64,000 nt of DNA, taken from NCBI GenBank assembly GCA_025453395.1, contig JALOQK010000007.1:6524-70523 (forward strand). Direction: 5' to 3'. This stretch comes from Candidatus Omnitrophota bacterium (GTDB lineage Bacteria > Omnitrophota > Gorgyraeia > Gygaellales > Profunditerraquicolaceae). Numbering within the stretch: the first letter of the stretch is position 1; every line of letters begins with the position of its first letter. Made by a program: the position numbers and the translations under genes. The notes below the pieces were generated by a model. It ran no database searches and was not told where the DNA came from. It worked only from the letters and a program-made list of their open reading frames with translations. Below are positions 46,294-60,499 of the stretch, piece by piece.

Positions 46294-49200
46294 TTATTTA
46301 GTTAAACCGCTTTTACGCAGATAATCGCTTTCGCTCATCTGCGGCCTTACTCCGTACATGGGATTAGGAAAAACCCAGAACTTGGTTTCTATGGCACCCA
46401 TGCCGCCGTGGAACACCTGGGCCTGGATAGAATACCTGTTCCGGGATAAATCTGCAGGCATATACCAATGTTGCAGGCCCTGCTCTGTCTTAAGGGTTAA
46501 TTCTGAAGCCGAATCAACAAGATAAGCATCCAGCCACGAAGCGGGTTTCTCTGGATAAGAAATTTCTGTGGACAGCGTCTCAAATCCGCCTTTTCTGGCC
46601 AAGGGATTATCAGCGTAATTGCTCGCGGTCTGTTTGTTGAAAGTATTAGTAAAACCATAATCCGCGTTCCAGATTAAATTTTCTGACTGGCCTGCAGCCT
46701 TAGCCGCGTACTTAAAGGCTAACTGCTGGCGGGTGATCGGCTCGCTTACATCCTTTAAGGTGTGCAACCTGACTAATCTCTGCGGCTGCATATTAAACAT
46801 CCGGGTAACCCCGGGCACCTGCACTAACGCGCCGGCTATAGCATTACCCGCAGCATCCTGATTAGACTGTGAATATAAATAAGACAAGGTCTCAGCCAGC
46901 CCTTTACTGTTATAAATATTGACTAGGGTGGGAAGCGAATATGCGGAATATGAATTCGCGTAATTATGCCAGGCAAAAGAAGAGATCTGCGATGAATCTA
47001 CGCCAAACCCTGCTTTGCCGCGTTCAGAGGTCAACGGTAAACCAAAGGTAAACATCTTATTCGCCCACTCAACATTTGACTGCTGCATACTAGCCCCCAC
47101 AGAACGCATAAGCCCGGGATTTCTATCGTCGGCAACAAGGCTGGCTACCCAGCGGGGATCTTCGGCCCCCTGGTTATAATCCCACTTCATCCTCTCCCGA
47201 TGCAAAATAAGCCCGTTGCCCGGGGTCATGTTATAAGTAGCTACGAATTTATTAAAAGCAAGCAAGTCTCTATCATAGGAGGTCTGGCTTAATACATCCT
47301 GTATGGCATTGTAACTGGGATTTTCTACTGCCTGGCCATATTGGTCTAATATCATACTTCCGGTCTTGACATCTGTAAGATAGAAGCTCTCTTTATACGG
47401 CTGGGGCATGACAAAATCCAATTCATTCTGCCATTCAGATTTATCTGCGGTAGAATTGTTCCAACCCAAAGACCATGCCGCCCCGCGTATCACTGAAGCA
47501 GCCATATTCACTCCGGAAGAGAAAAGCATCTTTGTCGTCATATTTCTTTCATCGCCGAAGTTCTTATCCAAAGCAGACTGCAGGCCTCCGGTAACCAGGC
47601 TTTCAAATACACCGGAAGTTACTCCACTATAAACCTGACTGGCAAATATCTGGCCCCTTGTAACGCCAATCTGTTTTAAGGCCTCATCAGTAGTAAGCGC
47701 GTCAGCCAAACCTTTCAATTGGCCCATAGATACCTTACCGGCAAACATAGGCATCTTTTCAGCGAGTTGCTTCCTCAAGGAAGCTATGGCCAAGTTACGA
47801 TTCATCTGGGCCTCATCAATACTTCCTCTTTGTAAATTTAATGACCCGGCCAAAGCCTTGCTATTAATCCTTTCCTGTTCTACTATCCCGGAGTTGTTTG
47901 CGCCTAAAGCATTATTTATCTTATTTTGTAACTGTTCTTGGGATAATTTCTGCGCATCCCCTTGAACCAAAAGAAGCTCAAACGGAATACTGGCGATTTT
48001 ATTTAGCTCCTTGTTATACTGCTCGAAGGTTATCTTTCCATCACGATAGTCTTTGTATGTTTTCTGTATTAAAGCAATGTCTTTAGCGCTTGCCAGATCC
48101 ACGCCAGCTGCGCGCAAGGTATAATCATAACGAAGCCTGGCCTCTATTTTGTCCTGTTTGCTGCCAAAATACCTTGAGGCATCTAACCCGTAGGTATTGG
48201 CCATGCCGCTAAATATAGGATAACTTACAGACTGAACCAGGCCTCCTACCAAAGGAGCCAGATATTTCTTTTTTTCCGGCAAGCTGTTGGTGGCAATTAT
48301 AGACATGGAGCTGGCGGCTAATCCCGGCCAACTCTGGGCATTAAAAGTATCCACAAAAGCGGCCTTGGCGAATCTGCCAAAAATTTGGCCGCCGCCTATT
48401 TGAGCTTTAGTATCAGTCCATTTTAAAATATCGGGATTGCTGGTGGGTTCAGCCAGATAGCGGCCAGGCTCAAGAGGCCCTTTAGGCACAACAGAAACAT
48501 CTGAAAATTGCCACATTTTATTTTTATCCAATGAAACCTCGTTGCCGCTTTTTGCATCAATATATTTTGAGTCATAATGATATACCTTGGGGTCCCAAAT
48601 AGACCTGCCTAAATTCGTAGCGCTTACCCCCGCAAACATCCCCAATATCTGCGCTGTTGCCCCGGGATTTTTTGCTGAATTGATTTTATCGCGATCTAAC
48701 GCGGCTATTACCGCGCTATTAGCAAACCCGCTCAAGGCTCCGACAGAAGCGCCTTTAAGCATATTAGAAAAGTTGGTGTTAAATCCAAAGTTACTAAAAC
48801 TGTTAGTGGTTTGAGTAATTCCAAAGGAATGCGTTGGTAGGCTAGGATTATTAATCTGGCTGTTAAGTGCTTCGGTCGGCTTAGCATCGCCAAGGGCGTC
48901 TGACGGATTAAGAAATCCCGCGGTTGCTCCGATTGCAACCCCAGAAACAATCATGGTGGTAGCCGGCTTCCACCCATAATAATTTCCTGCCACGCCCACA
49001 AGTCTTCCCACTTGGGAAGCGGCAACAAAAGTAGTATAACCTTTGGCCATGTTTGTAAGAGCAAAGCTGTTCTTTAAGGCGTCTCCCATAGCCGAGAAAG
49101 GCTTAATCGCGTTTACAGCAGTACTTCCTGGAGTGTTTGTAATAAGATTGCCCATGCCGGTGAAAGTATTGCTAAATCTGGTGCCCATGGTCGCGGTTTC

Positions 49201-49452
49201 AGAAGTAACTGGAGTTGCGGCTTCAAAACCGGAATTTAAGCTTGCGCCAATTGCCGCGGTACCAATAGAGATACCCGCGCTGGTAGCTATTTTGCCCCAA
49301 TCCACTTTAGAAATTTCTCCGCCGCCTGCGGAACTCCGAGCAGCAAAAGCTAATGGTTGTAATATTAAACAAAAAATTATTATTAGGGAAATAAGGTTTC
49401 CCCCTTTCCCCAATCTTTGACTGGTTTTCATCTGCAACTTTTTTTCAGTCAT
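46294..49452 (-). CDS. Exported 1052-aa protein with N-terminal signal/anchor and a G/S/T/A/N-rich N-terminal half; function unknown. Probably co-transcribed with the giant gene (1-nt spacer).
   Basis: ORF track. The N-terminus is MTEKKLQMKTSQRLGKGGNLISLIIIFCLILQPLAFAARSSAGGG. The stop at 46294-46296 is followed by the giant-gene ATG at 46290-46292. Confidence 0.8.
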   Translation of the reverse strand: MTEKKLQMKTSQRLGKGGNLISLIIIFCLILQPLAFAARSSAGGGEISKVDWGKIATSAGISIGTAAIGASLNSGFEAATPVTSETATMGTRFSNTFTGMGNLITNTPGSTAVNAIKPFSAMGDALKNSFALTNMAKGYTTFVAASQVGRLVGVAGNYYGWKPATTMIVSGVAIGATAGFLNPSDALGDAKPTEALNSQINNPSLPTHSFGITQTTNSFSNFGFNTNFSNMLKGASVGALSGFANSAVIAALDRDKINSAKNPGATAQILGMFAGVSATNLGRSIWDPKVYHYDSKYIDAKSGNEVSLDKNKMWQFSDVSVVPKGPLEPGRYLAEPTSNPDILKWTDTKAQIGGGQIFGRFAKAAFVDTFNAQSWPGLAASSMSIIATNSLPEKKKYLAPLVGGLVQSVSYPIFSGMANTYGLDASRYFGSKQDKIEARLRYDYTLRAAGVDLASAKDIALIQKTYKDYRDGKITFEQYNKELNKIASIPFELLLVQGDAQKLSQEQLQNKINNALGANNSGIVEQERINSKALAGSLNLQRGSIDEAQMNRNLAIASLRKQLAEKMPMFAGKVSMGQLKGLADALTTDEALKQIGVTRGQIFASQVYSGVTSGVFESLVTGGLQSALDKNFGDERNMTTKMLFSSGVNMAASVIRGAAWSLGWNNSTADKSEWQNELDFVMPQPYKESFYLTDVKTGSMILDQYGQAVENPSYNAIQDVLSQTSYDRDLLAFNKFVATYNMTPGNGLILHRERMKWDYNQGAEDPRWVASLVADDRNPGLMRSVGASMQQSNVEWANKMFTFGLPLTSERGKAGFGVDSSQISSFAWHNYANSYSAYSLPTLVNIYNSKGLAETLSYLYSQSNQDAAGNAIAGALVQVPGVTRMFNMQPQRLVRLHTLKDVSEPITRQQLAFKYAAKAAGQSENLIWNADYGFTNTFNKQTASNYADNPLARKGGFETLSTEISYPEKPASWLDAYLVDSASELTLKTEQGLQHWYMPADLSRNRYSIQAQVFHGGMGAIETKFWVFPNPMYGVRPQMSESDYLRKSGLTK

Positions 49453-49599
49453 TTTTGAGTTTTTAAGCTCTTTGTGAAACTATTTGTTATCAACTTAAAA
49501 AGAAAACCGGACTGTCAAATACCTGATTTCTCGTCGGTATCGGCAGCCCGGCTATCTTAAGCTTTTACTTTTTCGCTTTACTTTTTTCGCTTTTAAGAT

Positions 49600-49620
49600 C
49601 CGTGGCTTTGCGCCCTCCGA
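49600..49620 (-). promoter_or_regulatory. Conserved leader motif CCGTGGCTTTGCG-N-CCTCCGA (+ strand), copy A. A partial second copy CCGTGGCTTTC lies at 49645-49655.
   Basis: The same 13-mer plus CCTCCGA recurs at 58524-58553, at the same relative position (about +20 to +60) downstream of a second TTGACA/TATAGT promoter. Confidence 0.5.
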
Positions 49621-49669
49621 TTTCTCGGAGTTTGCCTGTTCGTTCCGTGGCTTTCTTAACGACACTTGA

Positions 49670-49697
49670 AGTATAACATATACATATATAGTGTCAA
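49670..49697 (-). promoter_or_regulatory. Near-consensus sigma70 promoter for the operon of the 1052-aa gene plus the giant gene: -35 TTGACA (49692-49697), 16-nt spacer, -10 TATACT (49670-49675)
   Basis: The minus strand reads gcgcTTGACActatatatgtatatgtTATACTtcaag. It lies about 215 nt upstream of the ATG at 49452. Confidence 0.55.
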
Positions 49698-49969
49698 GCG
49701 CTTTTACAAAGAATTTTGAGAGCGTTTTCAATCCGGGGATTTTGGCATATTCTGTTGCGAATAATGAGGTTTGGCGCCTGCTAAAAAAGAGCTTAAAGAG
49801 CTGATATTGCACTATTTTTAGAACTCTAAAACGGCCTTTTCTTAGGGTAAGTTTGAGGGTGAATAACGGGGGTGGGTAGTCAGGAATGAGTGGTGGGTTT
49901 AGCTAGACTAATAACCCACTACCCCTGCCTACCGGCAGGCGGCACAACTCATCCTCAGATTGGACATTG

Positions 49970-50018
49970 AACGGGCAGATTGGACATTAATATTGCAGAT
50001 TGGACATTTCATAGTTTG
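49970..50018 (+). promoter_or_regulatory. Operator-like array of 3 perfect copies of CAGATTGGACATT with 20-bp centre-to-centre phasing (TTGGACATT at 49970, 49990 and 50010)
   Basis: Direct sequence. The same TTGGACATT core recurs 3 times at 60431, 60471 and 60491 over the promoter of the HTH gene. Confidence 0.6.
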
Positions 50019-50554
50019 AAACAATCTGGATATTTGGCATTATATTCAGCTATCTTGGCTTCTTTAGCAGTTATCTTCTCGCTGATTAGTTCAATTTGCT
50101 TCTCTATCGTGTTAATTGCCTTGTTTAGCTTCTCAATAGCAGAGGCATAATCGCCACCAGTAGCCTGCAATGCCAATATCTGGCTTTTTAAATCATCAAC
50201 CGTTGCCTCTAAAGAGGCTCTTTGCGCCAAAAGCCCGGTAGTTACTTCACCATCCGGCTTGGCCTCACCATCAAGCTCTTTGCGCATAACAGCTATCCTG
50301 GCCAATATAATCGGGCAATCATCTTTTTCTTCTGGCGGCTCAGGAACAATAGCGCCGCTTTTAGAGGTATTTTGAGATTGGGTTATTCCCAAAGCATACT
50401 GATTTCCCTCTCCAAAAACATCTCCTGCCTGGCGATATTTATCCTGCACTGACCTGCCCATATAAATCTTCATCGCCACTAATGCCGCGGCGATTATAAT
50501 AACCAGAACCGCATACTCAATAAAACCTTGTGCCTTATTTTTTATTTTCCGCAT
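50009..50554 (-). CDS. Flp-type pilin-like N-terminus (KAQGFIEYAVLVIIIAAALVAM) fused to a C-terminal coiled-coil domain of about 100 aa (181 aa)
   Basis: ORF track. It has the (A/G)Q(G/S/T)xxEY class-III prepilin motif followed by a hydrophobic helix. The C-terminal half has a heptad-rich sequence (LEATVDDLKSQILALQ...KQIELISEKITAKEAKIAEYNAKY). Confidence 0.65.
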   Translation of the reverse strand: MRKIKNKAQGFIEYAVLVIIIAAALVAMKIYMGRSVQDKYRQAGDVFGEGNQYALGITQSQNTSKSGAIVPEPPEEKDDCPIILARIAVMRKELDGEAKPDGEVTTGLLAQRASLEATVDDLKSQILALQATGGDYASAIEKLNKAINTIEKQIELISEKITAKEAKIAEYNAKYPDCFKL

Positions 50555-51461
50555 AGTCCACCAATATTGTGGTTATTGACATATTCTCAGAGGCATTGCT
50601 GGCATTAGAAAGCATAATATTACATTTGTCCCCGGACGGATTAGAAAAATTCAATTCGGTCAAGGCTAACTCTATCTTCATATCTGCCGCTGGCGTCAGC
50701 TTCTTGCATGAAGGACAATCCCCGGACACGCCTCCGGCAACCTTTCTTTCAATAGGCTTCATATCCACCAGGTTCCATCCTTTAGCGGACATATTATCCT
50801 TATAAAAATTGGCCACAGGCTCTATATCGCTTGAGACAGAATAAGTCGCTCTCATTGTTTTATCCTGCTCTGACAAAGTCAACAAGGATGCCCCCGGATA
50901 AACCGGAGTAACGTCTTTCTTTGGATGCGCCAGCAACTTGGGGAAAACATTTTCCGCCTCTTTAGAAGAACTTGCATTATCATTTGTCTTGCTGTATGAA
51001 ACCGTAAATCTTGTCTTATTGTCCCGGGAAAATTCAGAAGGCATAAAACTTATGATCACCTGCTCCGGGTCTTTAGAAAAATACATGGTGCGCCCCATGG
51101 AATCTTCCATTTCCGGGGTCACCCTTACTGCCGGCAGTTTCTTTAGATTCTGCATTAATTCCTGCTCTGTCCAGCCTGATGCCGATAATTTTTTGCGGTA
51201 GAAATCCTTTATTGCCGCGGCGCCCTGGCTGGAAGCATAATAAATAAAATCTAATTTTCTCCCGGCGATCATCCGCTCTTCCCTCTTGACTTCTTCCGTT
51301 CCATAAGGAACGGACAATTCCTGTTTGGCAGATCCAAGTTCCCACCAGGAAGCGGAAGCAGAATTGGCCCCCGCGGTCAAAATAAAAATCATCAGCGCCA
51401 CCGGAAACATTTTTTTACGGCAATAAAACATTTTTCTCTTCCTCCTGTTTTCTAAAAACAA
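50535..51461 (-). CDS. Exported hypothetical protein with two related domains (xFYxxxxSAxGW motif twice). The true start is probably one of the internal Met codons (MFPVALMIFILTAGANSASA).
   Basis: ORF track. The N-terminus is signal-like. Its 5' end overlaps the end of the upstream TadG-like gene. Confidence 0.6.
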   Translation of the reverse strand: MFLENRRKRKMFYCRKKMFPVALMIFILTAGANSASASWWELGSAKQELSVPYGTEEVKREERMIAGRKLDFIYYASSQGAAAIKDFYRKKLSASGWTEQELMQNLKKLPAVRVTPEMEDSMGRTMYFSKDPEQVIISFMPSEFSRDNKTRFTVSYSKTNDNASSSKEAENVFPKLLAHPKKDVTPVYPGASLLTLSEQDKTMRATYSVSSDIEPVANFYKDNMSAKGWNLVDMKPIERKVAGGVSGDCPSCKKLTPAADMKIELALTELNFSNPSGDKCNIMLSNASNASENMSITTILVDYAENKK

Positions 51462-53281
51462 TCGGCATTGGCGGTACGCAGTTCTTTTATTTGCGTCTCT
51501 ATGTCCGCGGCATTTTGCCTGAAACCATCGGCATTATCCCTTAACAGATCCGCGGAAGCAAAAAGTGCGTTGGCCTGCTCTATCAACCCGGCAACCAACA
51601 ATGCGTTTGCCTCAACCTCCGTCTCACTTGCCTGACTTTCCATAGTTGCGGCGTTTTGATATAAATCCACTACTTGCCCTTCCAAAGCCGAAACATCTTC
51701 AACAACACTTTTGCAACGGTTATAGGTTACCCCCGGGTCGTCGGTCTCCACAATCGAGGCATCATGGCGCAATACCGGTTCATGGATCTGGCCAAGCCCG
51801 GTGAAATTAACCACACTGTAACTTGTAATATCCGGATATTCTGTTTGCCACAAACCAAGATCCCCGCCTTGATGATGTTGAGTAGTCCTTAAAGTAACTA
51901 AGCGGTCATGCACAATATCATCTATCCAGCAGATGATAAAAGGAAATGACGACTCAAGGTTTCCGCTTCGCACTGGGTACGCCGGCAACAATCCTGCCAA
52001 GGCTATGGCAAGAGGTGCGTACATTGAGGCCATCGTAGCTATGGCTGCTGCATTAGATTCCAAACCAAGTGCATTCATTTTTAAACCGGCGAAATTGGTT
52101 TCTATGCCTGCAAAAAGAGCAGCTTCCGCAGCCGCACATTGCGTAGCCCAGGTATGGCAACAAGGACAACCGGCATGGCAATGGCTGTGGCAACATGATA
52201 AACAAGGCCCCACGCAGGCGCAGGCAAGGACCAGAGCATCTTCTGCGATAGTATAACTTACTCCCGCTGCCACCCAACTAGCCTCAGCGGAAGCATATGA
52301 TGCCCCTGCCGCAGTTAAGGAAGCTGTAGCTGCCTTTGCAGAAGAAATAATATTCCACAAAAGCGGCAATTCCACAACACTGGGAAGTGCCGCGACTTTT
52401 AAATCAAAGGTATCCACCTTATCAAGCTTAACGCTTGTTTTGACAAAATGCAATCTTTCCTGGCCGTCTACCCAGCGATATTCATATTCATCGCCATGCT
52501 TTATATTATCAAGAAAATCGCTAAAGCTATCCCGGTAATTATTTCTTGCATCATCGCCAACAACAGAACTTGCGGGCTTGCCGGCTTTAAGCTTTGAACC
52601 GATTTCGCTGTTCATAAAAGCGAATTTATGCGCCAGTTCAATCGCGCTTTCCCTGCCTTCTTTTGCCATCTTTCTTATTGAAGCGTAAAAATAGATCTGC
52701 GCTGCGGCAAAGGCAGCAACAGAAATAAAGATCGCTATAAGCGTAGTAGTAAAAACCTCCATTGCCTCAAGCGCCAAGCCAATAGCAATTATCGCCTTGC
52801 CTATGCTAAATCCCGCCGCAGCCAGTTTCCCGATTGCCGCTGAAGTAAAGCCCAATGCCGCGCAAGGTGACGGACATGCAGTTGATTCCGCGGAACCGGC
52901 AGCAATTACCGCGGCAGTGGCTGCGGCCTCCGCGGCGGTTGCCGCAGCCTGACCGGCAATCGCCTGCGTATGCGCCTGGATCAAGTTATAAGTAGCAATG
53001 GCAAAAGAAACAGCCACCAGCGCATAAAACTCCCAATACCCTGTTTCCATGGCTGAATTGGCCTGGGCTACGCCGTTAAAGACATTTGCCATCACCGACC
53101 CGCCGGCTAAACTTCCGGCATCAGCGGCATTGCTGGTATCGGTCTTAAAAAAAGCCACCTTGCTTAAATTCATAGTCACCAGCGACATGGTGATAAGCAC
53201 AACCAGAACCACAAGAAATATGGGGATAAGCTGGCCCTTTTTGCCGAGACGGAATTTATAGAAATGAAATCTACGGAACAT
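51452..53281 (-). CDS. tadG: TadG-like pilus assembly protein (609 aa) with an N-terminal Tad_N-type TM segment and an unusual Cys/His-rich cluster
   Basis: The N-terminus is GQLIPIFLVVLVVLITMSLVTMNLSKV ... NAADAGSLAGG (a TadE/G-like motif). The internal cluster is CACVGPCLSCCHSHCHAGCPCCHTWATQC (about 52140-52230). Confidence 0.6.
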   Translation of the reverse strand: MFRRFHFYKFRLGKKGQLIPIFLVVLVVLITMSLVTMNLSKVAFFKTDTSNAADAGSLAGGSVMANVFNGVAQANSAMETGYWEFYALVAVSFAIATYNLIQAHTQAIAGQAAATAAEAAATAAVIAAGSAESTACPSPCAALGFTSAAIGKLAAAGFSIGKAIIAIGLALEAMEVFTTTLIAIFISVAAFAAAQIYFYASIRKMAKEGRESAIELAHKFAFMNSEIGSKLKAGKPASSVVGDDARNNYRDSFSDFLDNIKHGDEYEYRWVDGQERLHFVKTSVKLDKVDTFDLKVAALPSVVELPLLWNIISSAKAATASLTAAGASYASAEASWVAAGVSYTIAEDALVLACACVGPCLSCCHSHCHAGCPCCHTWATQCAAAEAALFAGIETNFAGLKMNALGLESNAAAIATMASMYAPLAIALAGLLPAYPVRSGNLESSFPFIICWIDDIVHDRLVTLRTTQHHQGGDLGLWQTEYPDITSYSVVNFTGLGQIHEPVLRHDASIVETDDPGVTYNRCKSVVEDVSALEGQVVDLYQNAATMESQASETEVEANALLVAGLIEQANALFASADLLRDNADGFRQNAADIETQIKELRTANADCF

Positions 53282-53288
53282 ATTATTC

Positions 53289-53573
53289 CTATTTTTGCCC
53301 TGTGCCGCCGGTTAAGACTTCTTCTTCTGTCAGATTATCCGGGGCATAGACCGGCCAGCGTAGCGTGTATTTGTCAGACGAAGTCCCGGCGGGAACCCGC
53401 GAGGCATTATAATTGGCCTGCCGCTTGACGATCTGGGCGTTGCCCCAGAACCAGATCCTGATGATCCCGCCGATAAAAAGAAAAATAATAATGAAAACCA
53501 CCGCGGTCTCAAGCGTTGACTGCCCGGATCGGCCTTTCTTAATCGGATTTATTCTGCGAACGGAGTTACCCAT
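53289..53573 (-). CDS. tadE: TadE-like minor pseudopilin (94 aa)
   Basis: The N-terminus is GQSTLETAVVFIIIFLFIGGIIRIWFW. It lies within the tad gene string. Confidence 0.55.
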   Translation of the reverse strand: MGNSVRRINPIKKGRSGQSTLETAVVFIIIFLFIGGIIRIWFWGNAQIVKRQANYNASRVPAGTSSDKYTLRWPVYAPDNLTEEEVLTGGTGQK

Positions 53574-54298
53574 TGCTGCGTCCTCTCCACTGTGCCATCC
53601 TTAGAGGCCTTACTGCTGTATTTATACTGACCATCAACCGGATCACGGTAAATATACTGCTCTACATCCACCAGATTTCCTCCTGAAATAATCTTATCAT
53701 TATCATCATTGCTATCGTCGTCGTTTTCCCTGATAGTGTAGGGAATAGTTGTCCTGATGCGCTCCTTAAGGCTAGAGCCCTTAATATTAGAAATACCGCC
53801 ATAATCTTCCTGCTTATTAACATTCTCTTCAAACTCAAGATTAGATTCTGTTGTCATATCTTCAACCCTTAAAGACCTGTTTTCTTCATCATCTTCTGAA
53901 ATATAATCACGGAATTTCCTTGTGTACTCGTCTTCATTGATCCGATAGGTCATGGTATTTTCCGGCTGTTCTCCCACCTTAGGCACTGCCCAAAACACAT
54001 TCGCAGAGCCGCTTACAGTCTGGGGGCTTCCTTTTTTGAAGCTTGAAAAATCCGCGTTGCGCCGATTCTGTAATAAGGTATACTGGACAGACGCGCCTGC
54101 TCCTTCGGATTCTGACCCGATATAAGTGCACCCCTTTTGCAACGCTCTCCGGAAAGCCTCCATTTTGGTGTATTGCTGGTCGTTTAATCTTTGCATGTAA
54201 GAAATAAGCATCCCGAATAAAAAAAGGATCAGCCCGCCGAAAATGGCAAGCTCTATGACTGCCTGGCCTTTTTCTCTGAAAACTGTCCCCGCGCGCAT
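53549..54298 (-). CDS. tadF: TadE/TadF-like pseudopilin (249 aa)
   Basis: The N-terminus is GQAVIELAIFGGLILFLFGMLISYMQ. It lies within the tad gene string. Confidence 0.55.
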   Translation of the reverse strand: MRAGTVFREKGQAVIELAIFGGLILFLFGMLISYMQRLNDQQYTKMEAFRRALQKGCTYIGSESEGAGASVQYTLLQNRRNADFSSFKKGSPQTVSGSANVFWAVPKVGEQPENTMTYRINEDEYTRKFRDYISEDDEENRSLRVEDMTTESNLEFEENVNKQEDYGGISNIKGSSLKERIRTTIPYTIRENDDDSNDDNDKIISGGNLVDVEQYIYRDPVDGQYKYSSKASKDGTVERTQQWVTPFAE

Positions 54299-54315
54299 TT
54301 TACCTCTTTCTTATG

Positions 54316-54750
54316 TTACTCCTTTGAATCTACTAAACTGGCCTCTAAATCTTCATTCTTAAATTCACTGTCAGACGCTCTTACAATATCATCAGGCAGA
54401 CCCTTCTTGGAAGAAATAAAATCGTATTTATCTTCGCCGCCCGCATATTCCTCTGAACGGCTGGAACCGGTAATAATGGTTGTGCCCTGAAGGTTGGAAC
54501 TTGTGCCGCCTCCCCGCAAAAGCCTAGTTGTGCTGACCATATCAGAAGTTGTGCTGGATTTACTTTGCGCGTACACCCCGGGGCTGGGCTCCCCTTCCTG
54601 AACAGGACTGATAAAAGCGTCTGTCATATCCTTAACTTTGCCCTGGAGGCCGCGTTTAATGTATGTATTCATACCGATAAAAGCCGCGGCCACCACGCTT
54701 AAGATAATCGCGTACTCCACAAAAGACAATCCTTTATTCTGTCTTATCAT
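54316..54750 (-). CDS. Flp-family pilin paralogue with extended C-terminal domain (144 aa)
   Basis: KGLSFVEYAIILSVVAAAFIGMNTYIKRGLQGKV. Confidence 0.65.
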   Translation of the reverse strand: MIRQNKGLSFVEYAIILSVVAAAFIGMNTYIKRGLQGKVKDMTDAFISPVQEGEPSPGVYAQSKSSTTSDMVSTTRLLRGGGTSSNLQGTTIITGSSRSEEYAGGEDKYDFISSKKGLPDDIVRASDSEFKNEDLEASLVDSKE

Positions 54751-54753
54751 CTT

Positions 54754-55104
54754 TTACCTCTGGGGTTCTTGGCTAAAATCCCCGACACTCTCATCCTTGC
54801 TTATATTCTGCTCTATCCGGGTACTGCTTTCCGAGATGCTCTTATTTGCTTCAAGCACAGAGCCTGAAGAACTGTCCGCGGGATTAGTGTAGCTTGTGGA
54901 AGTTTCCGCGATCTTACGCGTTATTCTGCTGTTGGCGACTGTCGCCCCGGGAGAATACATACCGCCATCGCTTATTTGCCCGGCAGTATTACGTAAAGAC
55001 CCCTGCACGCCTCTTTTAAAATAGACAGTCATGGAAAAAATAGCAATAGCCACAACCCCGATCATCACAACATACTCCATTATGCTCTGGGCCTTGTTCT
55101 TCAT
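54754..55104 (-). CDS. Flp-family pilin paralogue (116 aa)
   Basis: KAQSIMEYVVMIGVVAIAIFSMTVYFKRGVQG. Confidence 0.65.
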   Translation of the reverse strand: MKNKAQSIMEYVVMIGVVAIAIFSMTVYFKRGVQGSLRNTAGQISDGGMYSPGATVANSRITRKIAETSTSYTNPADSSSGSVLEANKSISESSTRIEQNISKDESVGDFSQEPQR

Positions 55105-55107
55105 AAC

Positions 55108-55263
55108 TTACCTCTTGGATTCATCCAGCTCTTCCTGCGCCTGCTTTAGCCGCGCGTTCATTGAGCGCTGGATATATTGATACATCGCTATCAATGCCGC
55201 CGATATAACAATAATAAGCATCGCGTATTCCAGAAAGTTCTGCCCGCGTTTTGAATTAAGCAT
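55108..55263 (-). CDS. flp: Short Flp pilin (51 aa), absent from the ORF track because it is under 60 aa
   Basis: Manual translation gives MLNSKRGQNFLEYAMLIIVISAALIAMYQYIQRSMNARLKQAQEELDESKR*. The ATG is at 55261-55263 and the TAA at 55108-55110. Confidence 0.65.
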   Translation of the reverse strand: MLNSKRGQNFLEYAMLIIVISAALIAMYQYIQRSMNARLKQAQEELDESKR

Positions 55264-55266
55264 AAA

Positions 55267-55545
55267 CTATTCTCCGCTATCTTTTCCTGCGATGTTGCTT
55301 GTTACCGAAGCTGCCACCGTGCCCATAACCCCTTCTTTAGTCAACCCGCCCTCAGGGGCAGCTTCGCCTTGGCTTACATTTCCGGTGTCATCCGGGACAT
55401 TGTTGACTATTGCCCCGGAGGCAGTGTTAAAATAATTTTTAAATGAGCCCTTCATTTTCATAATAAAACCCGCTGATACTATCGCGGCTATTACCACCGC
55501 CATAATTACAAAATACTCCGCTGTTGTCTGGGCTTTTTTATTCAT
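55267..55545 (-). CDS. Flp-family pilin paralogue (92 aa)
   Basis: KAQTTAEYFVIMAVVIAAIVSAGFIM. Confidence 0.7.
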   Translation of the reverse strand: MNKKAQTTAEYFVIMAVVIAAIVSAGFIMKMKGSFKNYFNTASGAIVNNVPDDTGNVSQGEAAPEGGLTKEGVMGTVAASVTSNIAGKDSGE

Positions 55546-56400
55546 TTAGAGCACCTTTTTAGTCACAAAATCCAAGAGTATCGGCCCGCCGATGACAATG
55601 CCGATAACCGGAAGTATGCAGAATATTAAAGGTATCAATATCTTTAACGGCGCCTGCATGGCGATTCTCTCTCCGCGGTTAAACCTCTGCATGCGCGAAT
55701 CTTCAGAAAGTATGGTAAAAGCCTCGGCAACCGGGGTGCCCATTCTCTCGGCCAAAACAAGGGTCTGGACAAAGGAACTAACTTCAGAAATATTAAGCCT
55801 TCTGGACATGTCTTTTAATGCCTGCGAACGCGATTTGCCCCACTTGATTTCCTCCAGCACAAAACCCAATTCTTCAAGCATGGGGTTCATGGTGGTTTTT
55901 TCAAGTATCCATTTTATGGAAGTGGTAAAATCCAGGCCTGCCTCAATACAAAGCCCTAACAGATCTACTGTTTCCGGCAAAATGCGCGCGATAGCATTTT
56001 TGCGCCGCGCGATTATCTGCTTTAAGAAAATATCCGGGATAATATACCCTAATGCCAGACAAACAATAAATGTCGGGGGGTCGAATTTATTAAAACCGAA
56101 ATAAGCCGCTATGCACAAGACAACTATCAACAATATTTTCAGATTAAAAAAGGCCTGAACGCTGAATTTTACCCGCGAGGCGTCAAGCTTAAGCTTGATC
56201 TTGTCATAAATCTTGATCTTCTCCAGCATTTTATGCGTAAAAGGAAAGATATCATTAAGAAAAGAATTAAAATTAAATTTCCCTCCAGTTGCCTCTTCGG
56301 ATAATTTCATGCGCGAGGCGGAAACTTTCTCATCATACCGCGAGGCAAGAAGGATGAAACTGGCGCATCCCACGATAAAAAGAATTATTAATATTTCCAT
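55546..56400 (-). CDS. tadC: TadC-like inner-membrane platform protein (T2SS F-type domain), 284 aa
   Basis: Polytopic membrane protein with T2SSF-like helices. It is adjacent to the TadB-like gene and the pilin genes. Confidence 0.75.
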   Translation of the reverse strand: MEILIILFIVGCASFILLASRYDEKVSASRMKLSEEATGGKFNFNSFLNDIFPFTHKMLEKIKIYDKIKLKLDASRVKFSVQAFFNLKILLIVVLCIAAYFGFNKFDPPTFIVCLALGYIIPDIFLKQIIARRKNAIARILPETVDLLGLCIEAGLDFTTSIKWILEKTTMNPMLEELGFVLEEIKWGKSRSQALKDMSRRLNISEVSSFVQTLVLAERMGTPVAEAFTILSEDSRMQRFNRGERIAMQAPLKILIPLIFCILPVIGIVIGGPILLDFVTKKVL

Positions 56401-56418
56401 ATCTCTCCTATTATCCGC

Positions 56419-57288
56419 CTATACTTTTATTTGGCTGAATTTATGGATCAAAATCATCCCCACTATTTGTAAACCGCCCGCGATAATCAACATAAACCTG
56501 CCCTGCTCGTTTTGCATCATCGCGTCAAAATGATGCGGATTAAATTTCAATACCCACATCACAAAAAGTATCGGAAGAACCGACATGATTATGCCCTGCA
56601 GCCTTCCCTGAAGGGTCAAGGTCTTAATATTCTCTTTTAGTTTACGGTTATCTCTAATGGTAGTCACCAGGCGGCTGAAGACCTTGGTTAAATCTCCTCC
56701 TGTTTCACGCGCCACCAAAATAGAATTAACTACCATGCTTAAATCTTCCATCATCATTCTTTTATCCAGCCTGCGCAAACTCTCCTCAAGGGTGATACCC
56801 ATCTTATTTTCCCTTACCACTAAGCCGATTTCCTGGCTCATCGGAGCAGGCATTTCTTCAATCAAAACCTCAAGCGACTGCAAAAGGCTCAAGCCGCCTT
56901 TTAAGGAACTTGAAAGTATCATAATCGCGTCTAATATCTGGACATTGAATTTTTTGCGCCGCCTGCCATTACGGATTTTTAATATAAGATTTGGTATGAC
57001 AAGGCCCAAAAACAACCCTGCGATAGCAATAAGCGGCGAGCCTGAAAGTAAAAAGAATATTCCGGCAAATATCGGAGGCAGGATAAAGTAAAAACGCACG
57101 ATGGATTTGGGGCTTTTATCATAATAAAAAAGCTTATCCAGCTCCTGCGCTACGACTTCTTCTTTTTTTTCTTTCCAGATTTTTAGTTTATCTTCAAGGG
57201 AAGGGGCAAACGCCATAGTAAGGATCACAATGGCCGCCGCTGTCAAAAACAAAACACTTATCAAAGCCATGCCGCTAAACATTGTCAA
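56419..57288 (-). CDS. tadB: TadB-like inner-membrane platform protein, 289 aa
   Basis: Membrane protein paralogous to the adjacent TadC-like gene, in the order typical of tad loci. Confidence 0.75.
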   Translation of the reverse strand: MTMFSGMALISVLFLTAAAIVILTMAFAPSLEDKLKIWKEKKEEVVAQELDKLFYYDKSPKSIVRFYFILPPIFAGIFFLLSGSPLIAIAGLFLGLVIPNLILKIRNGRRRKKFNVQILDAIMILSSSLKGGLSLLQSLEVLIEEMPAPMSQEIGLVVRENKMGITLEESLRRLDKRMMMEDLSMVVNSILVARETGGDLTKVFSRLVTTIRDNRKLKENIKTLTLQGRLQGIIMSVLPILFVMWVLKFNPHHFDAMMQNEQGRFMLIIAGGLQIVGMILIHKFSQIKV

Positions 57289-57312
57289 CTCCTGTTATGG
57301 TGTGCTTGCCTT

Positions 57313-57669
57313 TTATTGTGGCCAGTACTCATCACTCTGCTTGGCAACTGTTTCTGTGCCTGTGCGGGTCTGCTTCTGCTTACTGACAGTAGTAGTCTTG
57401 GTCTTCGCGCCAACATCATCCCCGGCCGCAGCGTCTTCGGTTGTGCCAGACACATCCTCGGAAGATTCTGTGTTGCTGATAATTGTATATTCATTGGTAG
57501 TCTGCCCGGGAGAAAATTGTTCTCCGATCTGGTCAGAAGCTTCCCTTATTTTTCCTTGCACGCCGCGCTTAAAATATGTCTGCATGGCGATAAGAGCGGC
57601 TACTACTACGGCAATAATTACCGCGTATTCCAGAGTGCTCTGAGCTTTTTCACTATCACGCATAAACAT
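57313..57669 (-). CDS. Flp-family pilin paralogue with C-terminal extension (118 aa)
   Basis: KAQSTLEYAVIIAVVVAALIAMQTYFKRGVQGKI. Confidence 0.65.
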   Translation of the reverse strand: MFMRDSEKAQSTLEYAVIIAVVVAALIAMQTYFKRGVQGKIREASDQIGEQFSPGQTTNEYTIISNTESSEDVSGTTEDAAAGDDVGAKTKTTTVSKQKQTRTGTETVAKQSDEYWPQ

Positions 57670-57712
57670 TTTATCACCTCCTCAAGCTTTTGACCACCTT
57701 CTATTAACAAAT

Positions 57713-58096
57713 TTAATGACCGCCCAAATACCCCGGGGCAGAAGTATCTTCTTCCTGCCACCCGATAACCTGCTGACGAGAAGCATCGGTTACTTCGCTA
57801 CCCACAACTCTCTCTACCTCTCCCTCTTTCTTCAGTCTCTCTGTTTTAGTAGCATCGGTCTTACTCTGGGCGCTTGAGGAAGCATAATACGGCTCATATT
57901 GTCCGCTTGTAAATTCTAAAGTCTGCCCTCCCACATCCCCAGCTGCACCGGTATGATCCACAACGTCTTTTGTCCTTCCCTGCAAGCCCCTTCTCACATA
58001 AACCTGCATGGCTAATGCCGCGCCTACAACCAAGCCTATTAAGATGGCGTATTCTGCGGTAGACTGTCCGTTCTTTTTTCTTAAACGCATAAACAT
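57713..58096 (-). CDS. Flp-family pilin paralogue with C-terminal extension (127 aa)
   Basis: KNGQSTAEYAILIGLVVGAALAMQVYVRRGLQG. Confidence 0.65.
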   Translation of the reverse strand: MFMRLRKKNGQSTAEYAILIGLVVGAALAMQVYVRRGLQGRTKDVVDHTGAAGDVGGQTLEFTSGQYEPYYASSSAQSKTDATKTERLKKEGEVERVVGSEVTDASRQQVIGWQEEDTSAPGYLGGH

Positions 58097-58144
58097 TTTT
58101 CACCCCCCTTTTTTTATACCCTTAGCTTGCCAATTGCCTGCCTG

Positions 58145-58312
58145 CTAAAACTTTATCTTGTCTACCCCGCTTTTCATCTGGTCGCCTACATGCGTCAACG
58201 AATCTTGAACCCTATTTCCGATTACCTTGTTGGCAACCACAACTATTGCCGCGACAATGGCTGTCAGGATAACCACATACTCCAAGGTTGACTGCCCTTT
58301 TTTCTTGATCAT
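58145..58312 (-). CDS. flp: Canonical short Flp pilin (55 aa), first gene after the promoter and leader; absent from the ORF track
   Basis: Manual translation gives MIKKKGQSTLEYVVILTAIVAAIVVVANKVIGNRVQDSLTHVGDQMKSGVDKIKF*. The SD GGAGGAG lies 6 nt upstream of the ATG (58310-58312). The stop TAG is at 58145-58147. Confidence 0.75.
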   Translation of the reverse strand: MIKKKGQSTLEYVVILTAIVAAIVVVANKVIGNRVQDSLTHVGDQMKSGVDKIKF

Positions 58313-58342
58313 ATCTCTCCTCCAGTTAATAAACTGTTGTTT

Positions 58343-58480
58343 ATCCCGACGTTACGCTTCGCGTAAGTCGGGATTATTTCGGCCAAACGATTTACGTTCA
58401 CTTCGTTCCGTAAATCGTGGCCTCAATAAAAAAGCCGAGTTACCAATATAAACCTTTTTTAGGCTTTCGGTAACCCGGCT
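58343..58480 (-). promoter_or_regulatory. Structured 5' leader: three consecutive stem-loops between the promoter and the first flp gene
   Basis: H1 (58343-58374) pairs atcccgacgttacgc with gcgtaagtcgggat. H2 (58381-58422) pairs a perfect 10-bp acgatttacg with cgtaaatcgt and has GGCC clamps. H3 (58433-58480) pairs agccgagttacc with ggtaacccggct. None is followed by a U-tract on the coding strand. Confidence 0.5.
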
Positions 58481-58523
58481 AACGTTGTCGCTTTTGACCC
58501 TCCAGAAATTGCGAGCAATCGTC

Positions 58524-58553
58524 CCGTGGCTTTGCGTGGCCGCCGACCTCCGA
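58524..58553 (-). promoter_or_regulatory. Conserved leader motif CCGTGGCTTTGCG...CCTCCGA, copy B
   Basis: Identical 13-mer plus 7-mer to the copy at 49600-49620. Confidence 0.5.
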
Positions 58554-58582
58554 CAGCCGTGCTATTTCGTTGCCGCAATCAA

Positions 58583-58611
58583 ACTATAACATTTCTAATA
58601 AACACTGTCAA
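58583..58611 (-). promoter_or_regulatory. Near-consensus sigma70 promoter for the flp/tad operon: -35 TTGACA (58606-58611), 17-nt spacer, -10 TATAGT (58583-58588)
   Basis: The minus strand reads cTTGACAgtgtttattagaaatgtTATAGTttg. It starts about 33 nt after the stop of the HTH gene. Confidence 0.6.
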
Positions 58612-58643: not shown

Positions 58644-60419
58644 TTAAAGCTTAAACCAGATTCTTTTTTCCTGAAAACTGCATCCGGTTTCGTTAAGCCT
58701 TAAAAAAGCGTATTCCAGATCTTTGCGCCAGGCGCAATTTTCCGGAAAAATAAATTCCGCGGTATAATGTTTATCAAAGGCGGATAGTTTTGTTTTTAGA
58801 TTGTAGAAACGGCTTTTCATCGTCGAGAAATCCACGTCCTGATAGGACGCGGGCAAAAAATGCCACCTGAAATAGGCGTCCAGAAAATATAAATATCTCT
58901 CCAGGTACTCTTTTATTTCGGCGGGTTTTTCCTGCGCGTCCACCCAGGAAAAGAAACGCTGGGCATCAGCGGTATAAGTGAACAATTCCATTTTACGGCT
59001 ATAATCCTGAAAGGTTAATTCCGGAGCCGGCCATCTTTGAAAATAGGCATGGCATAAATCTTCTGTTGACAAGTTTGCAAGCAAAGAATTCTTCAGAATA
59101 AGCAAAGAAATCTTATCCCCTAAAGATGCTTTGACTGCGGCGCCTTTTAACGTAAACCATTGATTCTTATCCGGTTGCAGTATATTTATTTCTATGCTCG
59201 CCACAAAGATCTTCTTTCCTAAAGGCTTAATCTCAAAGGGGCAGAAATCGCTTATGGATTGAACTTTACGGTAATTGACAAATTGCCAAGGCCAAACCGC
59301 GAAGATCAAACCGGTTTTTTTATACTGGTCAAATTTGAAAATATTTATGTCCTCAAAACGCTCCCCCTGAAAAATAAGTGACGACACATAGGCATCATCT
59401 TTTCCTTCGCAGGCGTTGAATAAATCCACAAATTCTTCTGTGGGCCGTTCATATCCGGGCGCGGAAAAAAGAATCCAAATATTCTTTTCATTTAGGGCTT
59501 GGTTAGCGTAAATCCTTGTTTTGCTTAATGTTAGGGAAAAATCATAGGTTATGTAAGGAGTAGACCAAACTGTATAAAAACGCGGGTCAAAATAAAGATA
59601 CTTGCCGCTGGATAACATTATTTTCAGGCTGCGCACTTCTTCCGGGATTGTGCCCATTAAACGGCCTATTTCCGGAAAGACCATTTCCTTAACCCTTTCT
59701 AGCTCATTAAGATACGCGAGAAAATCTTCTTTGCTGAAATTGGCTCCTAATAAAGGCCAAATTTCCGGTTCCAGAGAGGGATTTAACAAGAAATTGTCAA
59801 ATAGGGAAGAATAAAATAAAGCTTCTAAGCGCTTCAACGATTGCTCGTTGTAATAAGAAGTTTTATTGAAAATTTGATTGTTCAAACGAGGCAAACCTTT
59901 AAACAAGGAATCTACTGCTTTTAAAAGAATCACCCCGGTTGTAATTGCTTCTAAGAACTTATCTTCCTGTGGTGCAATGGCTTGCGGTATAGAAACCGGA
60001 ATAAACCTTGGCTCTGGCACTGGCTCCGGAACAGGTTCGGGCTTTGGCTCTGGTTTAGGTTCAAAGATAGGTTCTACTTTGGACGGCTCTTCTGCTTTTG
60101 TTTCTTGTGGCTTTTGGCTTGTGGCTTGTGACTCACTAGTCGGATTTAATTCCGTGACAGGCTGCGCCAACGCAAGCGCCTTACGGATTCTCTCTTTTAA
60201 CTCTGGAGCAATGCTCTTTTTGGGCCTGCTTCTGCGGCCAACAGGCATACTTAAACCTGACTCTTTAAAAACCGCGTTTATGCTTGATTTTGAAATATCA
60301 ACCTGAAATTGTTCTTGGATCAATAGATTTAAAGCCCGGCAGCTTATTTTGGGGTTTTCTTTCTTTTTTAGCAGTATAAGCTGTTTTATTTCATCTGTAA
60401 CTTTGTAAGCAATCCCCAT
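58644..60419 (-). CDS. HTH-domain protein (591 aa): N-terminal helix-turn-helix, a GRRSRPKK basic patch, an (EPKP)n/(PEPV)n Pro-rich linker, and a C-terminal domain of about 400 aa of unknown function. Candidate locus regulator.
   Basis: The N-terminus KISCRALNLLIQEQFQVDISKSSINAVFKESGL is HTH-like. Its own promoter is covered by the TTGGACATT array. Confidence 0.55.
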   Translation of the reverse strand: MGIAYKVTDEIKQLILLKKKENPKISCRALNLLIQEQFQVDISKSSINAVFKESGLSMPVGRRSRPKKSIAPELKERIRKALALAQPVTELNPTSESQATSQKPQETKAEEPSKVEPIFEPKPEPKPEPVPEPVPEPRFIPVSIPQAIAPQEDKFLEAITTGVILLKAVDSLFKGLPRLNNQIFNKTSYYNEQSLKRLEALFYSSLFDNFLLNPSLEPEIWPLLGANFSKEDFLAYLNELERVKEMVFPEIGRLMGTIPEEVRSLKIMLSSGKYLYFDPRFYTVWSTPYITYDFSLTLSKTRIYANQALNEKNIWILFSAPGYERPTEEFVDLFNACEGKDDAYVSSLIFQGERFEDINIFKFDQYKKTGLIFAVWPWQFVNYRKVQSISDFCPFEIKPLGKKIFVASIEINILQPDKNQWFTLKGAAVKASLGDKISLLILKNSLLANLSTEDLCHAYFQRWPAPELTFQDYSRKMELFTYTADAQRFFSWVDAQEKPAEIKEYLERYLYFLDAYFRWHFLPASYQDVDFSTMKSRFYNLKTKLSAFDKHYTAEFIFPENCAWRKDLEYAFLRLNETGCSFQEKRIWFKL

Positions 60420-60430
60420 ATAATCCCTCT

Positions 60431-60499
60431 TTGGACATTTATTAGGTTAGATAGCAATATAACATTCAGTTTGGACATTGTCAAGGCATTTTGGACATT
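60431..60499 (+). promoter_or_regulatory. Three TTGGACATT sites (60431-60439, 60471-60479, 60491-60499; spacings 40 and 20 bp) flanking or overlapping the HTH-gene promoter, at roughly +10, the spacer/-35 edge, and -45
   Basis: Direct sequence. The orientation and core are identical to the 49970-50018 array. Confidence 0.6.
60456..60484 (-). promoter_or_regulatory. Near-consensus sigma70 promoter of the HTH gene: -35 TTGACA (60479-60484), 17-nt spacer, -10 TATATT (60456-60461). It overlaps the TTGGACATT sites.
   Basis: The minus strand reads gccTTGACAatgtccaaactgaatgtTATATTgct. The -10 lies about 37 nt upstream of the ATG at 60419. Confidence 0.6.

Follow-up and report, generated by a model that had tools for sequence, protein, structure and literature searches.

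Introduction

Why do two neighbouring transcription units, a Tad-type pilus (flp/tad) operon and a unit that carries a giant gene, start from the same kind of promoter and share a short motif in their leaders? The question is raised by 64,000 nucleotides (nt) of DNA from a Candidatus Omnitrophota bacterium (GenBank assembly GCA_025453395.1, contig JALOQK010000007.1, positions 6,524 to 70,523 of the forward strand), here called the window and numbered from its first letter. A previous interpretation based on the letters alone, the sequence-only reading, ascribed the motif to a common post-initiation regulator, that is, a site for an RNA-binding protein or a small RNA (sRNA) or a transcription-factor roadblock, and placed the giant protein in the pilus regulon. 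Here, we demonstrate that the two leaders contain GEMM-I riboswitch aptamers of the cyclic di-GMP (c-di-GMP)-I clan, whose most conserved stretch is the shared motif; each aptamer overlaps a predicted terminator, and through the two of them a cyclic dinucleotide would control the pilus genes and the giant gene.

To our knowledge, the giant genes of Omnitrophota encode the longest known bacterial proteins, and we know of nothing on the control of transcripts of at least 46 kb. Omnitrophota giant-gene loci of the 'Archaeovorin' type have been described to contain a system resembling type II secretion systems and type IV pili (T2SS/T4P-like), with many small genes for proteins with class III signal peptides ahead of the giant gene (West-Roberts et al. 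2023, 10.1101/2023.11.21.568195; 10.64898/2026.06.07.730766), and the layout of the window matches these loci (10.1101/2023.11.21.568195).

Results

The shared leader motif is the conserved core of two GEMM-I aptamers

The 13-mer CCGTGGCTTTGCG, which the sequence-only reading had noticed as common to both leaders, occurs exactly twice in the 64-kb window with one mismatch allowed, at 49600-49612 and 58524-58536, in each case behind one of the two promoters named there. Shuffling gave a mean of 0.06 matches, and two matches were reached in none of 100 shuffles. When the whole window was scanned against Rfam with curated gathering scores, exactly two matches exceeded the threshold, and these are the two leaders. 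The leader of the giant-gene unit holds aptamer A (49538-49645, minus strand), matched by RF03167 (c-di-GMP-I-GGC) with 60.5 bits at a gathering score of 59, and the leader of the flp/tad unit holds aptamer B (58466-58573, minus strand), matched by RF01051 (c-di-GMP-I) with 37.8 bits at a gathering score of 35; our own covariance model, R1, covers 58579-58459 at aptamer B. Both families are members of clan CL00126, the GEMM-I cyclic-dinucleotide riboswitches.

Read as RNA, the 13-mer is CGC-AAA-GCCACGG, in which the AAA linker is flanked by the 3' end of the outer pairing of hairpin 1 and by the 5' strand of hairpin 2. In GEMM RNAs, hairpin 1 consists of a 2-bp and a 6-bp stem around a 3-nt internal loop, the linker is "virtually always AAA" and a GNRA tetraloop is "almost always" present in hairpin 1 (PMC1950547). 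This 2+6-bp architecture with its internal loop of 3 nt is seen in the leaders, as are the AAA linker and hairpin 2. In aptamer A, hairpin 1 (GC / AAA / CUCCGA-GAAA-UCGGAG, closed by a GAAA loop of the GNRA type) is followed by the AAA linker, by hairpin 2 (AGCC-A-CGGAUC ... GAU-AG-CCGGGCU) and then by GCCGAUACCGAC, and all 21 of the 21 proposed pairs are canonical. Aptamer B departs from the family in hairpin 1 (GC / ACG bulge / GCUGUCG-GGAGGU loop-CGGCGGC, then the AAA linker), which has a 7-bp inner stem, an ACG bulge in place of AAA and a GGAGGU loop; its hairpin 2 is long and carries a GGGUCAA bulge, and the 3' end of the aptamer is UUACCGAA. The core CGC-AAA-GCC within the 13-mer is present in both leaders, invariant in our first alignment (A1) and found in every A-type and B-type row shown from two larger ones (A2 and A3, described below). 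In addition, the loop of hairpin 2 in aptamer A (49564-49590, minus strand) contains a tandem duplication, GCGAAAAAAGUAAA / GCGAAAAAGUAAA, and the length of this region varies in all relatives.

The heptamer CCTCCGA, which had been counted as part of the shared leader element, is indeed present in both leaders (at 49614 and 58547), but it is not specific to them, with three more sites on the plus strand and one on the minus strand, six in the window. As RNA (UCGGAGG) it makes up hairpin 1's 3' strand in leader A, whereas in leader B it comprises the loop and the end of the 5' strand before it. Because the heptamer occupies different parts of hairpin 1 in the two aptamers, it is not structurally homologous, and its occurrence in both leaders is coincidental.

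Both promoters proposed earlier lie where they had been placed on the minus strand and are of a strong sigma-70 type, each matching the consensus at 11 of 12 positions. The promoter of the flp/tad unit (58583-58611) has TTGACA, a 17-nt spacer and a TG-extended TATAGT, and that of the giant-gene unit (49670-49697) has TTGACA, a 16-nt spacer and a TG-extended TATACT. Their similarity is real, but as a link between the two operons it is not specific, since these are generic extended -10 sigma-70 promoters and a third copy lacks a riboswitch. The three best promoter-like sites between 46 and 64 kb are 49697-49670, 58611-58583 and 60484-60456, the last being a TG-extended near-consensus promoter as well (TTGACA-N17-TATATT, 60456-60484, minus strand). 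The Logan assembly of SRR12684589 (L001) contains 23,159 nt identical to the window, both leaders included.

Two aptamer sub-lineages precede different genes in related loci

For comparison, we fetched 19 related loci with TadB as anchor, comprising 17 metagenome-assembled genomes (MAGs) of Candidatus Omnitrophota/Omnitrophica and two entries labelled "uncultured Planctomycetales bacterium", Planctomycetes being a phylum related to Omnitrophota. A metagenome scan with the 3' signature of aptamer B added 31 further contigs, giving 50 related contigs in all, in which GEMM-I aptamers were located with Rfam and with model R1 and divided by the absence (A-type) or presence (B-type) of the GGGUCAA bulge. 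The 15 distinct A-types lack this bulge, have a GNRA loop and G at position 20, and end at the 3' side in G(C/U)UGCCGAA, whereas the 32 distinct B-types carry the GGGUCAA bulge in hairpin 2, a loop with GGAGG, a variable position 20 and the 3' end UUACCGAA. Within the clan, RF03167 gives the best match to aptamer A and to the 12 relatives with a reported Rfam hit, which score 59.6-70.1 bits at a gathering score of 59. The B-types reported by RF01051 score 35-46 bits, and 8 of 25 checked B-types fall below the gathering score. The idea that the B-types form a new class invisible to Rfam was nevertheless rejected: four of the first five had failed, but 16 of 20 metagenome B-types pass the RF01051 threshold. 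In the B-types (L002, L006, L017, L019 and L023-L053; window positions 58545-58551 and 58494-58500) a loop of 5-12 nt that nearly always contains GGAGG is combined with the conserved GGGUCAA bulge on the 3' side of hairpin 2, and the two may provide an alternative tertiary contact to that of tetraloop and receptor.

The leader covariation and structure analysis that the sequence-only reading had called for supports the aptamer fold. In alignment A2 (17 sequences of both types) 98.6% of cells are paired, compared with 29-49% in slid controls, and in alignment A3 (33 distinct sequences, none used in model building) 99.7% are paired, compared with 19-46%; both alignments were fitted to the model, which inflates these percentages and counts against them, as does the 3' strand of hairpin 2 in A3, which was fixed by the search pattern. 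Double changes occur at 9 of 18 pairs in either alignment, and none of 500 shuffles of either reaches the observed score. Compensatory changes affect all six inner-stem pairs of hairpin 1 and one of its two outer pairs.

These results also bear on the kind of regulator that had been proposed. The leaders do share a conserved control element, but Rfam and covariation identify it as a GEMM-I core and not as the binding site of an RNA-binding protein, an sRNA or a roadblock factor. A trans-acting factor on the nascent leader, such as a CsrA-like protein, an sRNA or a DNA-binding roadblock, might be suspected from the GGA/GGAGG motifs in both leaders, from the near-universal GGAGG loop in B-type hairpin 1 and from the terminators described below, which could yield short RNAs. 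However, the 13-mer consists of paired and linker positions of a known aptamer and lies within covarying helices, Rfam models that score structure place both leaders above curated thresholds, no feature demands a protein partner, and the A-type loops are GNRA and not GGA. We regard such a factor as extremely improbable; the specific candidate of a CsrA/Rsm-type sRNA with GGA motifs was dropped on the same evidence from Rfam and covariation.

The genes behind the two aptamer types differ consistently. A-type aptamers are positioned after the tad genes, and in eight loci (L005, L007, L009, L013, L017, L018, L019 and L020) a very large open reading frame (ORF) follows directly, with 48-59% identity to the window's giant ORF over its first ~290 aa. 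In L035 and L046 the ORF behind the A-type is of the giant type as judged by its N-terminal sequence, and in the window and L032 the aptamer stands ahead of a gene for a 1052-aa protein or its homolog. In L002, it follows a 1314-aa homolog of the 1052-aa gene at the contig end, with the downstream sequence off the contig. Every A-type with readable downstream sequence thus precedes a giant-gene unit, and no A-type was found at three tad loci that lack a following giant gene (L016, L021, L022). By comparison, the first ORF behind the B-type aptamer encodes an Flp pilin with G/A-x4-EY in all five of the cases found first and in 28 of 28 metagenome cases in which an ORF was found; 33 of 36 checked B-types precede a pilin. 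No ATG-started ORF was found behind the B-type of L038, which has ample downstream sequence, and a B-type was not found in L015 and L022, where the gene order is the same. In eight loci (the window, L002, L017, L019, L028, L032, L035 and L046) an A-type and a B-type lie on the same strand, separated by 8.7-13.2 kb.

Among the 16 aptamers scored as A-type, 13 have a promoter like those of the window upstream; one of the 16 is a truncated aptamer in L006, and for the A-types proper the count is 12 of 15. For the B-types of other contigs, TTGACA-N17-tgTTATAyT was found upstream in 29 of 31. A further GEMM-I aptamer was seen at a contig edge, at L006 1-93 (minus strand), which equals L025 6327-6419 (plus strand). 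It is incomplete, has a GAAA loop and A20, possesses its own TTGACA/TATATT promoter and is oriented away from the tad locus, with its target off the contig.

The extra partial copy of the motif that had been placed at 49645-49655 is present as CCGTGGCTT at 49645-49653 (minus strand; RNA AAGCCACGG), just 5' of aptamer A, and repeats the 5' strand of hairpin 2. Its CGG is able to pair with the CCG of ...GCCGAUACCGAC / ...AUACCGAC, which would lengthen the closing stem of aptamer A, and the 3' strand of hairpin 2 may find a decoy in the rest of the copy. The AGCCACGG prefix also occurs in L002, L017, L019, L020 and L032, with GGGCACGG in L046, and is absent from the A-type leaders of L005, L007, L009, L010, L013 and L018. 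The CGG/CCG closing stem was dropped as a feature of the model because it fits only members with the prefix.

The ligand pockets of the two aptamers differ at position 20

Pocket positions follow the Vc2 numbering (PMC6140456), with A47 and C92 assigned via alignment to the Rfam consensus. The pocket of aptamer A consists of G20, A47 and C92, as it does in its A-type orthologs (G20 in all 14), and at the level of sequence this is the canonical c-di-GMP pocket. Aptamer B likewise has A47 and C92 but carries A20 (AAAU-A-GC), which is repeated in a second assembly. From these residues we infer the ligand of either aptamer, c-di-GMP being the expected one for A and the most simply assumed one for B, as discussed below.

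The Rfam name of the family that matches aptamer A could point to a different ligand. The consensus cores of RF03167 and RF01051 differ only at the A47 position (CGC-G-AAG versus CGC-A-AAG), and in our own reading the 'GGC' in the name of RF03167 denotes positions 20/47/92. A variant aptamer with an altered ligand would be in line with RF03167 being the top clan model for aptamer A and 12 relatives, but all A-type sequences read C(G/A)C-A-AAGCC, so that aptamer A and its 14 orthologs carry A at the first linker nucleotide, like canonical c-di-GMP-I. The label 'c-di-GMP-I-GGC' was therefore rejected as a statement about the ligand of aptamer A, and an altered ligand seems quite improbable to us.

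More weight has to be given to the possibility that aptamer B of the window senses 3'3'-cGAMP (cyclic GMP-AMP), like the GEMM-Ib switches, or both dinucleotides, in which case the pilus and the giant gene would be under different dinucleotides. The change from G20 to A, seen in aptamer B as opposed to G20 in A and in more than one assembly, is the substitution that defines cGAMP riboswitches (PMC6140456). In favour of this possibility, the G20A mutant of Vc2 binds cGAMP, with a dissociation constant of 120 nM, next to c-di-GMP at 53 nM (PMC6140456). However, the A20 change alone thus gives a bispecific and not a selective aptamer in Vc2. Moreover, position 20 is not conserved ahead of Flp pilins: of the 32 distinct B-types, 24 have G there, 4 have A and 4 have C, and this failure of orthologous B-types to maintain A20 weakens the case for aptamer B as a dedicated cGAMP sensor. 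We consider a cGAMP or dual sensor at aptamer B unlikely, yet it is the alternative that deserves the most attention. Because position 20 is G in 24 of 32 and varies in the rest, the simplest view of the B-type sub-lineage is that it senses c-di-GMP and tolerates variation at position 20. The placement of the giant protein in the pilus regulon is plausible in so far as one signal could serve both units; a shared regulon is likely but not certain, because the aptamers are of different sub-lineages and differ at position 20 (G versus A).

Terminators that overlap the aptamers suggest ON switches

Each aptamer is followed by an intrinsic terminator that shares sequence with it. Terminator A (49497-49553, minus strand) appears in both minimum free energy (MFE) and centroid folds (z = -4.3) and has 11 pairs of complementarity before the T-run, with the 5' arm AGCCGGGCUGCC at 49553-49542, the 3' arm GACAGUCCGG at 49516-49507 and the U-tract UUUUCUUUUU at 49506-49497. 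Terminator B (58425-58480, minus strand), likewise present in MFE and centroid folds, has 13 pairs of complementarity directly before the T-run, with the 5' arm AGCCGGGUUACC at 58480-58469, the 3' arm GGUAACUCGGCU at 58444-58433 and the U-tract UUUUUAUU at 58432-58425. The 5' arm of each terminator is the 3' strand of the aptamer's hairpin 2 plus C92. In unconstrained MFE and centroid folds of both leaders the terminator is formed and hairpin 2 is not, and forcing hairpin 2 costs 7.5 kcal/mol in leader A and 8.4 kcal/mol in leader B.

The order of promoter, aptamer, overlapping terminator and gene on a single strand is the same in both leaders and in relatives. When tested by direct complementarity, the aptamer 3' strand matches the sequence before the T-run in 13 of 13 A-type leaders (at least 8 pairs) and in 26 of 31 B-type leaders; this test replaced one based on the MFE of fixed segments (7 of 13 and 20 of 32), in which U-tracts paired with A-rich aptamer sequence.

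Because the terminator uses the 3' strand of hairpin 2 and is favoured by the folds, a ligand that stabilises the aptamer would prevent termination and act as an ON switch. In the model that we derive from these folds for both leaders, a separate strong extended -10 sigma-70 promoter would produce each leader transcript from the predicted start sites, and a terminator could fold about 20-60 nt past the 3' end of the aptamer. Without ligand the terminator would form and the transcript would end after about 150-170 nt, whereas with a cyclic dinucleotide bound, hairpin 2 and the pocket would retain the shared strand and allow polymerase to read through. Read-through at B would lead into the Flp pilin gene and the Tad operon, and read-through at A into the gene for the 1052-aa protein and into the giant gene, which exceeds 46 kb, such that high c-di-GMP would turn on pilus and giant protein together. 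Overall, a single second messenger probably turns on both the pilus operon and the giant gene.

Since each leader has its own promoter and terminator, and ligand-free transcripts of about 150-170 nt are predicted, one could also imagine that the leaders are independent trans-acting sRNAs whose position before the operons is incidental. Against this stands their conserved, co-oriented placement before the same gene families (33 of 36 B-types and all readable A-types), and the strand shared by terminator and aptamer is a hallmark of cis-acting switches, so that a role in trans would be an additional one. We judge independent sRNAs to be very improbable and favour cis-acting riboswitches. Between terminator B and the pilin start lie two further stem-loops (58422-58381 and 58374-58343, minus strand), the second with a GCGAAGC loop; similar small hairpins with a CGAAG loop are found elsewhere in relatives, in L019 within hairpin 2 and in L017 and L046 behind the aptamer, and may represent a small repeated hairpin element.

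Genes and leader features behind the switches

The first gene after aptamer B (58145-58312, minus strand) encodes a 55-aa Flp-type pilin (MIKKKG/QSTLEY...) with a weak match to Class_IIIsignal. The rest of the Tad-type operon (50009-58096, minus strand) contains more Flp-like pilins, TadB (57288-56419) and TadC (56400-55546), which account for two T2SSF matches, TadE/TadG-like pseudopilins, a 308-aa protein and a 181-aa pilin-like protein; a Tad domain was also matched in the operon, and L001 gives the same gene calls. Further components of the Tad system lie upstream, namely a secretin fragment and a fusion ATPase of 717 aa (60870-63023, minus strand), in which a ParA/MinD-type part (CpaE/TadZ-like, residues 3-242) is joined to T2SSE (CpaF/TadA-like, residues 365-646). 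Behind the third promoter, a gene at 58644-60419 (minus strand) encodes a 591-aa protein with only weak N-terminal helix-turn-helix matches. In L015 and L022, too, a homolog immediately precedes the first pilin gene, and this conserved member of the locus is possibly a regulator.

Aptamer A is followed by the gene for the 1052-aa protein (46294-49452, minus strand), which looks secreted and is 100% identical to MUF05_06570 (Candidatus Omnitrophica); no Pfam domain was found in it. The giant ORF (3-46292, minus strand) starts with an ATG at 46292, one base past the stop of the 1052-aa gene, and comprises 15,433 codons, remaining open at the window edge. It has matches to Peptidase_C39-like (residues 183-261), ATP-grasp, DUF7790, TPR and, weakly, a glycosyltransferase, and no GGDEF, EAL or PilZ domain was found in the 15,433 codons inside the window.

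Behind its terminator, leader A (49400-49494, minus strand) contains an AU-rich box (~49494-49459), the start codon at 49452 and a G-box, GGGGAAAGGGGG, at 49411-49400. An alignment of 13 A-type leaders (the window, L005, L007, L009, L010, L013, L017-L020, L032, L035 and L046) revealed in all of them an AU-rich box (CTTAnTAAnAAGTTTTAnAAA...), a short ATGAAA start, a G-box and then a U/C-rich run. The G-box reads GGGG(T/A)(A/T)AGGGG in 12 of the 13, and GGGGTAGGGG in L035. In six MAGs it lies within an upstream ORF (uORF) of 25-32 codons (..GVRGxF.FFLF.I*), the stop of which abuts or overlaps the ATG of the giant ORF; in three MAGs the G-box is fused in frame to the giant ORF, and in L032 and the window a different frame applies, in which it encodes GKGG of the signal peptide of the 1052-aa protein. 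Because the reading frame differs between genomes, the G-box is conserved at the nucleotide level.

Discussion

Taken together, we consider it highly probable that two GEMM-I riboswitches with overlapping terminators allow c-di-GMP to turn on the pilus and the giant protein together. In addition to the limits of the fitted alignments, several points weigh against this explanation. Position 20 is A instead of G in aptamer B, which may therefore bind another ligand than aptamer A; the score of aptamer B is barely above the Rfam threshold; it lacks the GNRA tetraloop that is usual in the family; the closing stem is weak in many aptamer members; and 5 of 31 B-type leaders have no clear terminator by the simple complementarity test.

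The leaders described here belong to a known riboswitch class and do not represent a new kind of regulator. They share with the founding GEMM-I RNAs (RF01051; Vc2 of Vibrio cholerae) the two hairpins, the 2+6-bp hairpin 1, the AAA linker and the position in the 5' untranslated region (UTR), and aptamer A also has G20, A47 and C92. What differs is the Omnitrophota context, a giant ORF as the regulated gene, and B-types in which a 5-12-nt GGAGG loop replaces GNRA, a GGGUCAA bulge is conserved and scores are low. The association with pili has precedents. Targets of the Geobacter GEMM-Ib switches (Gs1761, Gm0970), which have the same fold and A20 as in aptamer B, include pilus-related genes. In Geobacter, reporter and RNA-seq data show that the ligand activates the downstream genes (PMC8835794), and since 2007 GEMM RNAs have been on record ahead of genes for pili and secretion (cpaA, pilM/O/Q, pulF) and as common in Planctomycetes (PMC1950547). 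Unlike in the Geobacter switches, A20 is not conserved among the orthologs of aptamer B, and the window and the fragments of relatives gave no evidence for a cGAMP synthase, at which no search was aimed.

A further likeness concerns the gene that is controlled. Bordeleau et al. reportedly described in 2015 a c-di-GMP riboswitch upstream of the Clostridioides difficile type IV pilin gene pilA1, a class II switch at which high c-di-GMP is said to promote pilus expression through terminator read-through. As predicted here, that switch stands in the leader of a major pilin gene, but it controls a type IVa-like pilus in a Gram-positive organism, whereas the aptamers described here are of class I and the pilus is of the Tad/Flp type (type IVc). 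For large surface proteins, the precedent is Bc2 of Bacillus thuringiensis, a c-di-GMP riboswitch of class I that lies upstream of cap, the gene for a collagen adhesion protein, in its 5'-UTR (PMC4933901). As at aptamer A, a c-di-GMP-I switch there precedes a gene for a large surface or adhesion protein, but the gene in the window, with more than 15,430 codons, exceeds that one by orders of magnitude, and a second riboswitch sits on the neighbouring pilus operon.

For Omnitrophota, PilZ genes located after giant genes and GGDEF domains inside many of them had already suggested a link to c-di-GMP (10.1101/2023.11.21.568195). The word riboswitch has no occurrence in that study or in the related report (10.1101/2023.11.21.568195; 10.64898/2026.06.07.730766), and in the searchable literature the sole work that contains "Omnitrophota" or "Omnitrophica" together with "riboswitch" (a preprint and its published version) does not connect them. 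The link between a switch and the giant gene thus appears to be unreported in the searchable literature for this phylum. In terms of riboswitch biology the aptamers are ordinary, save for the B-type loop and the variable position 20; new are the paired arrangement with a pilin switch across an Omnitrophota clade and the low-scoring B-type sub-lineage.

Riboswitches before the giant gene and before the major pilin gene provide a concrete model, in which the same messenger would act on both by antitermination, and which fits the PilZ and GGDEF elements that earlier work placed around such genes. The aptamers are short enough for in vitro work without culturing the organism, and the covariance model can be used for mapping the c-di-GMP regulon across the phylum. 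A more elaborate version, which we advance as speculation and hold to be fairly improbable, is a two-riboswitch circuit that licenses an attachment or predation apparatus, with the pilin switch having drifted to A20 and the uORF and G-box adding a further layer of control. If the A20 pilin switch does read cGAMP, or both dinucleotides, the pilus and the giant protein would be subject to two-signal control.

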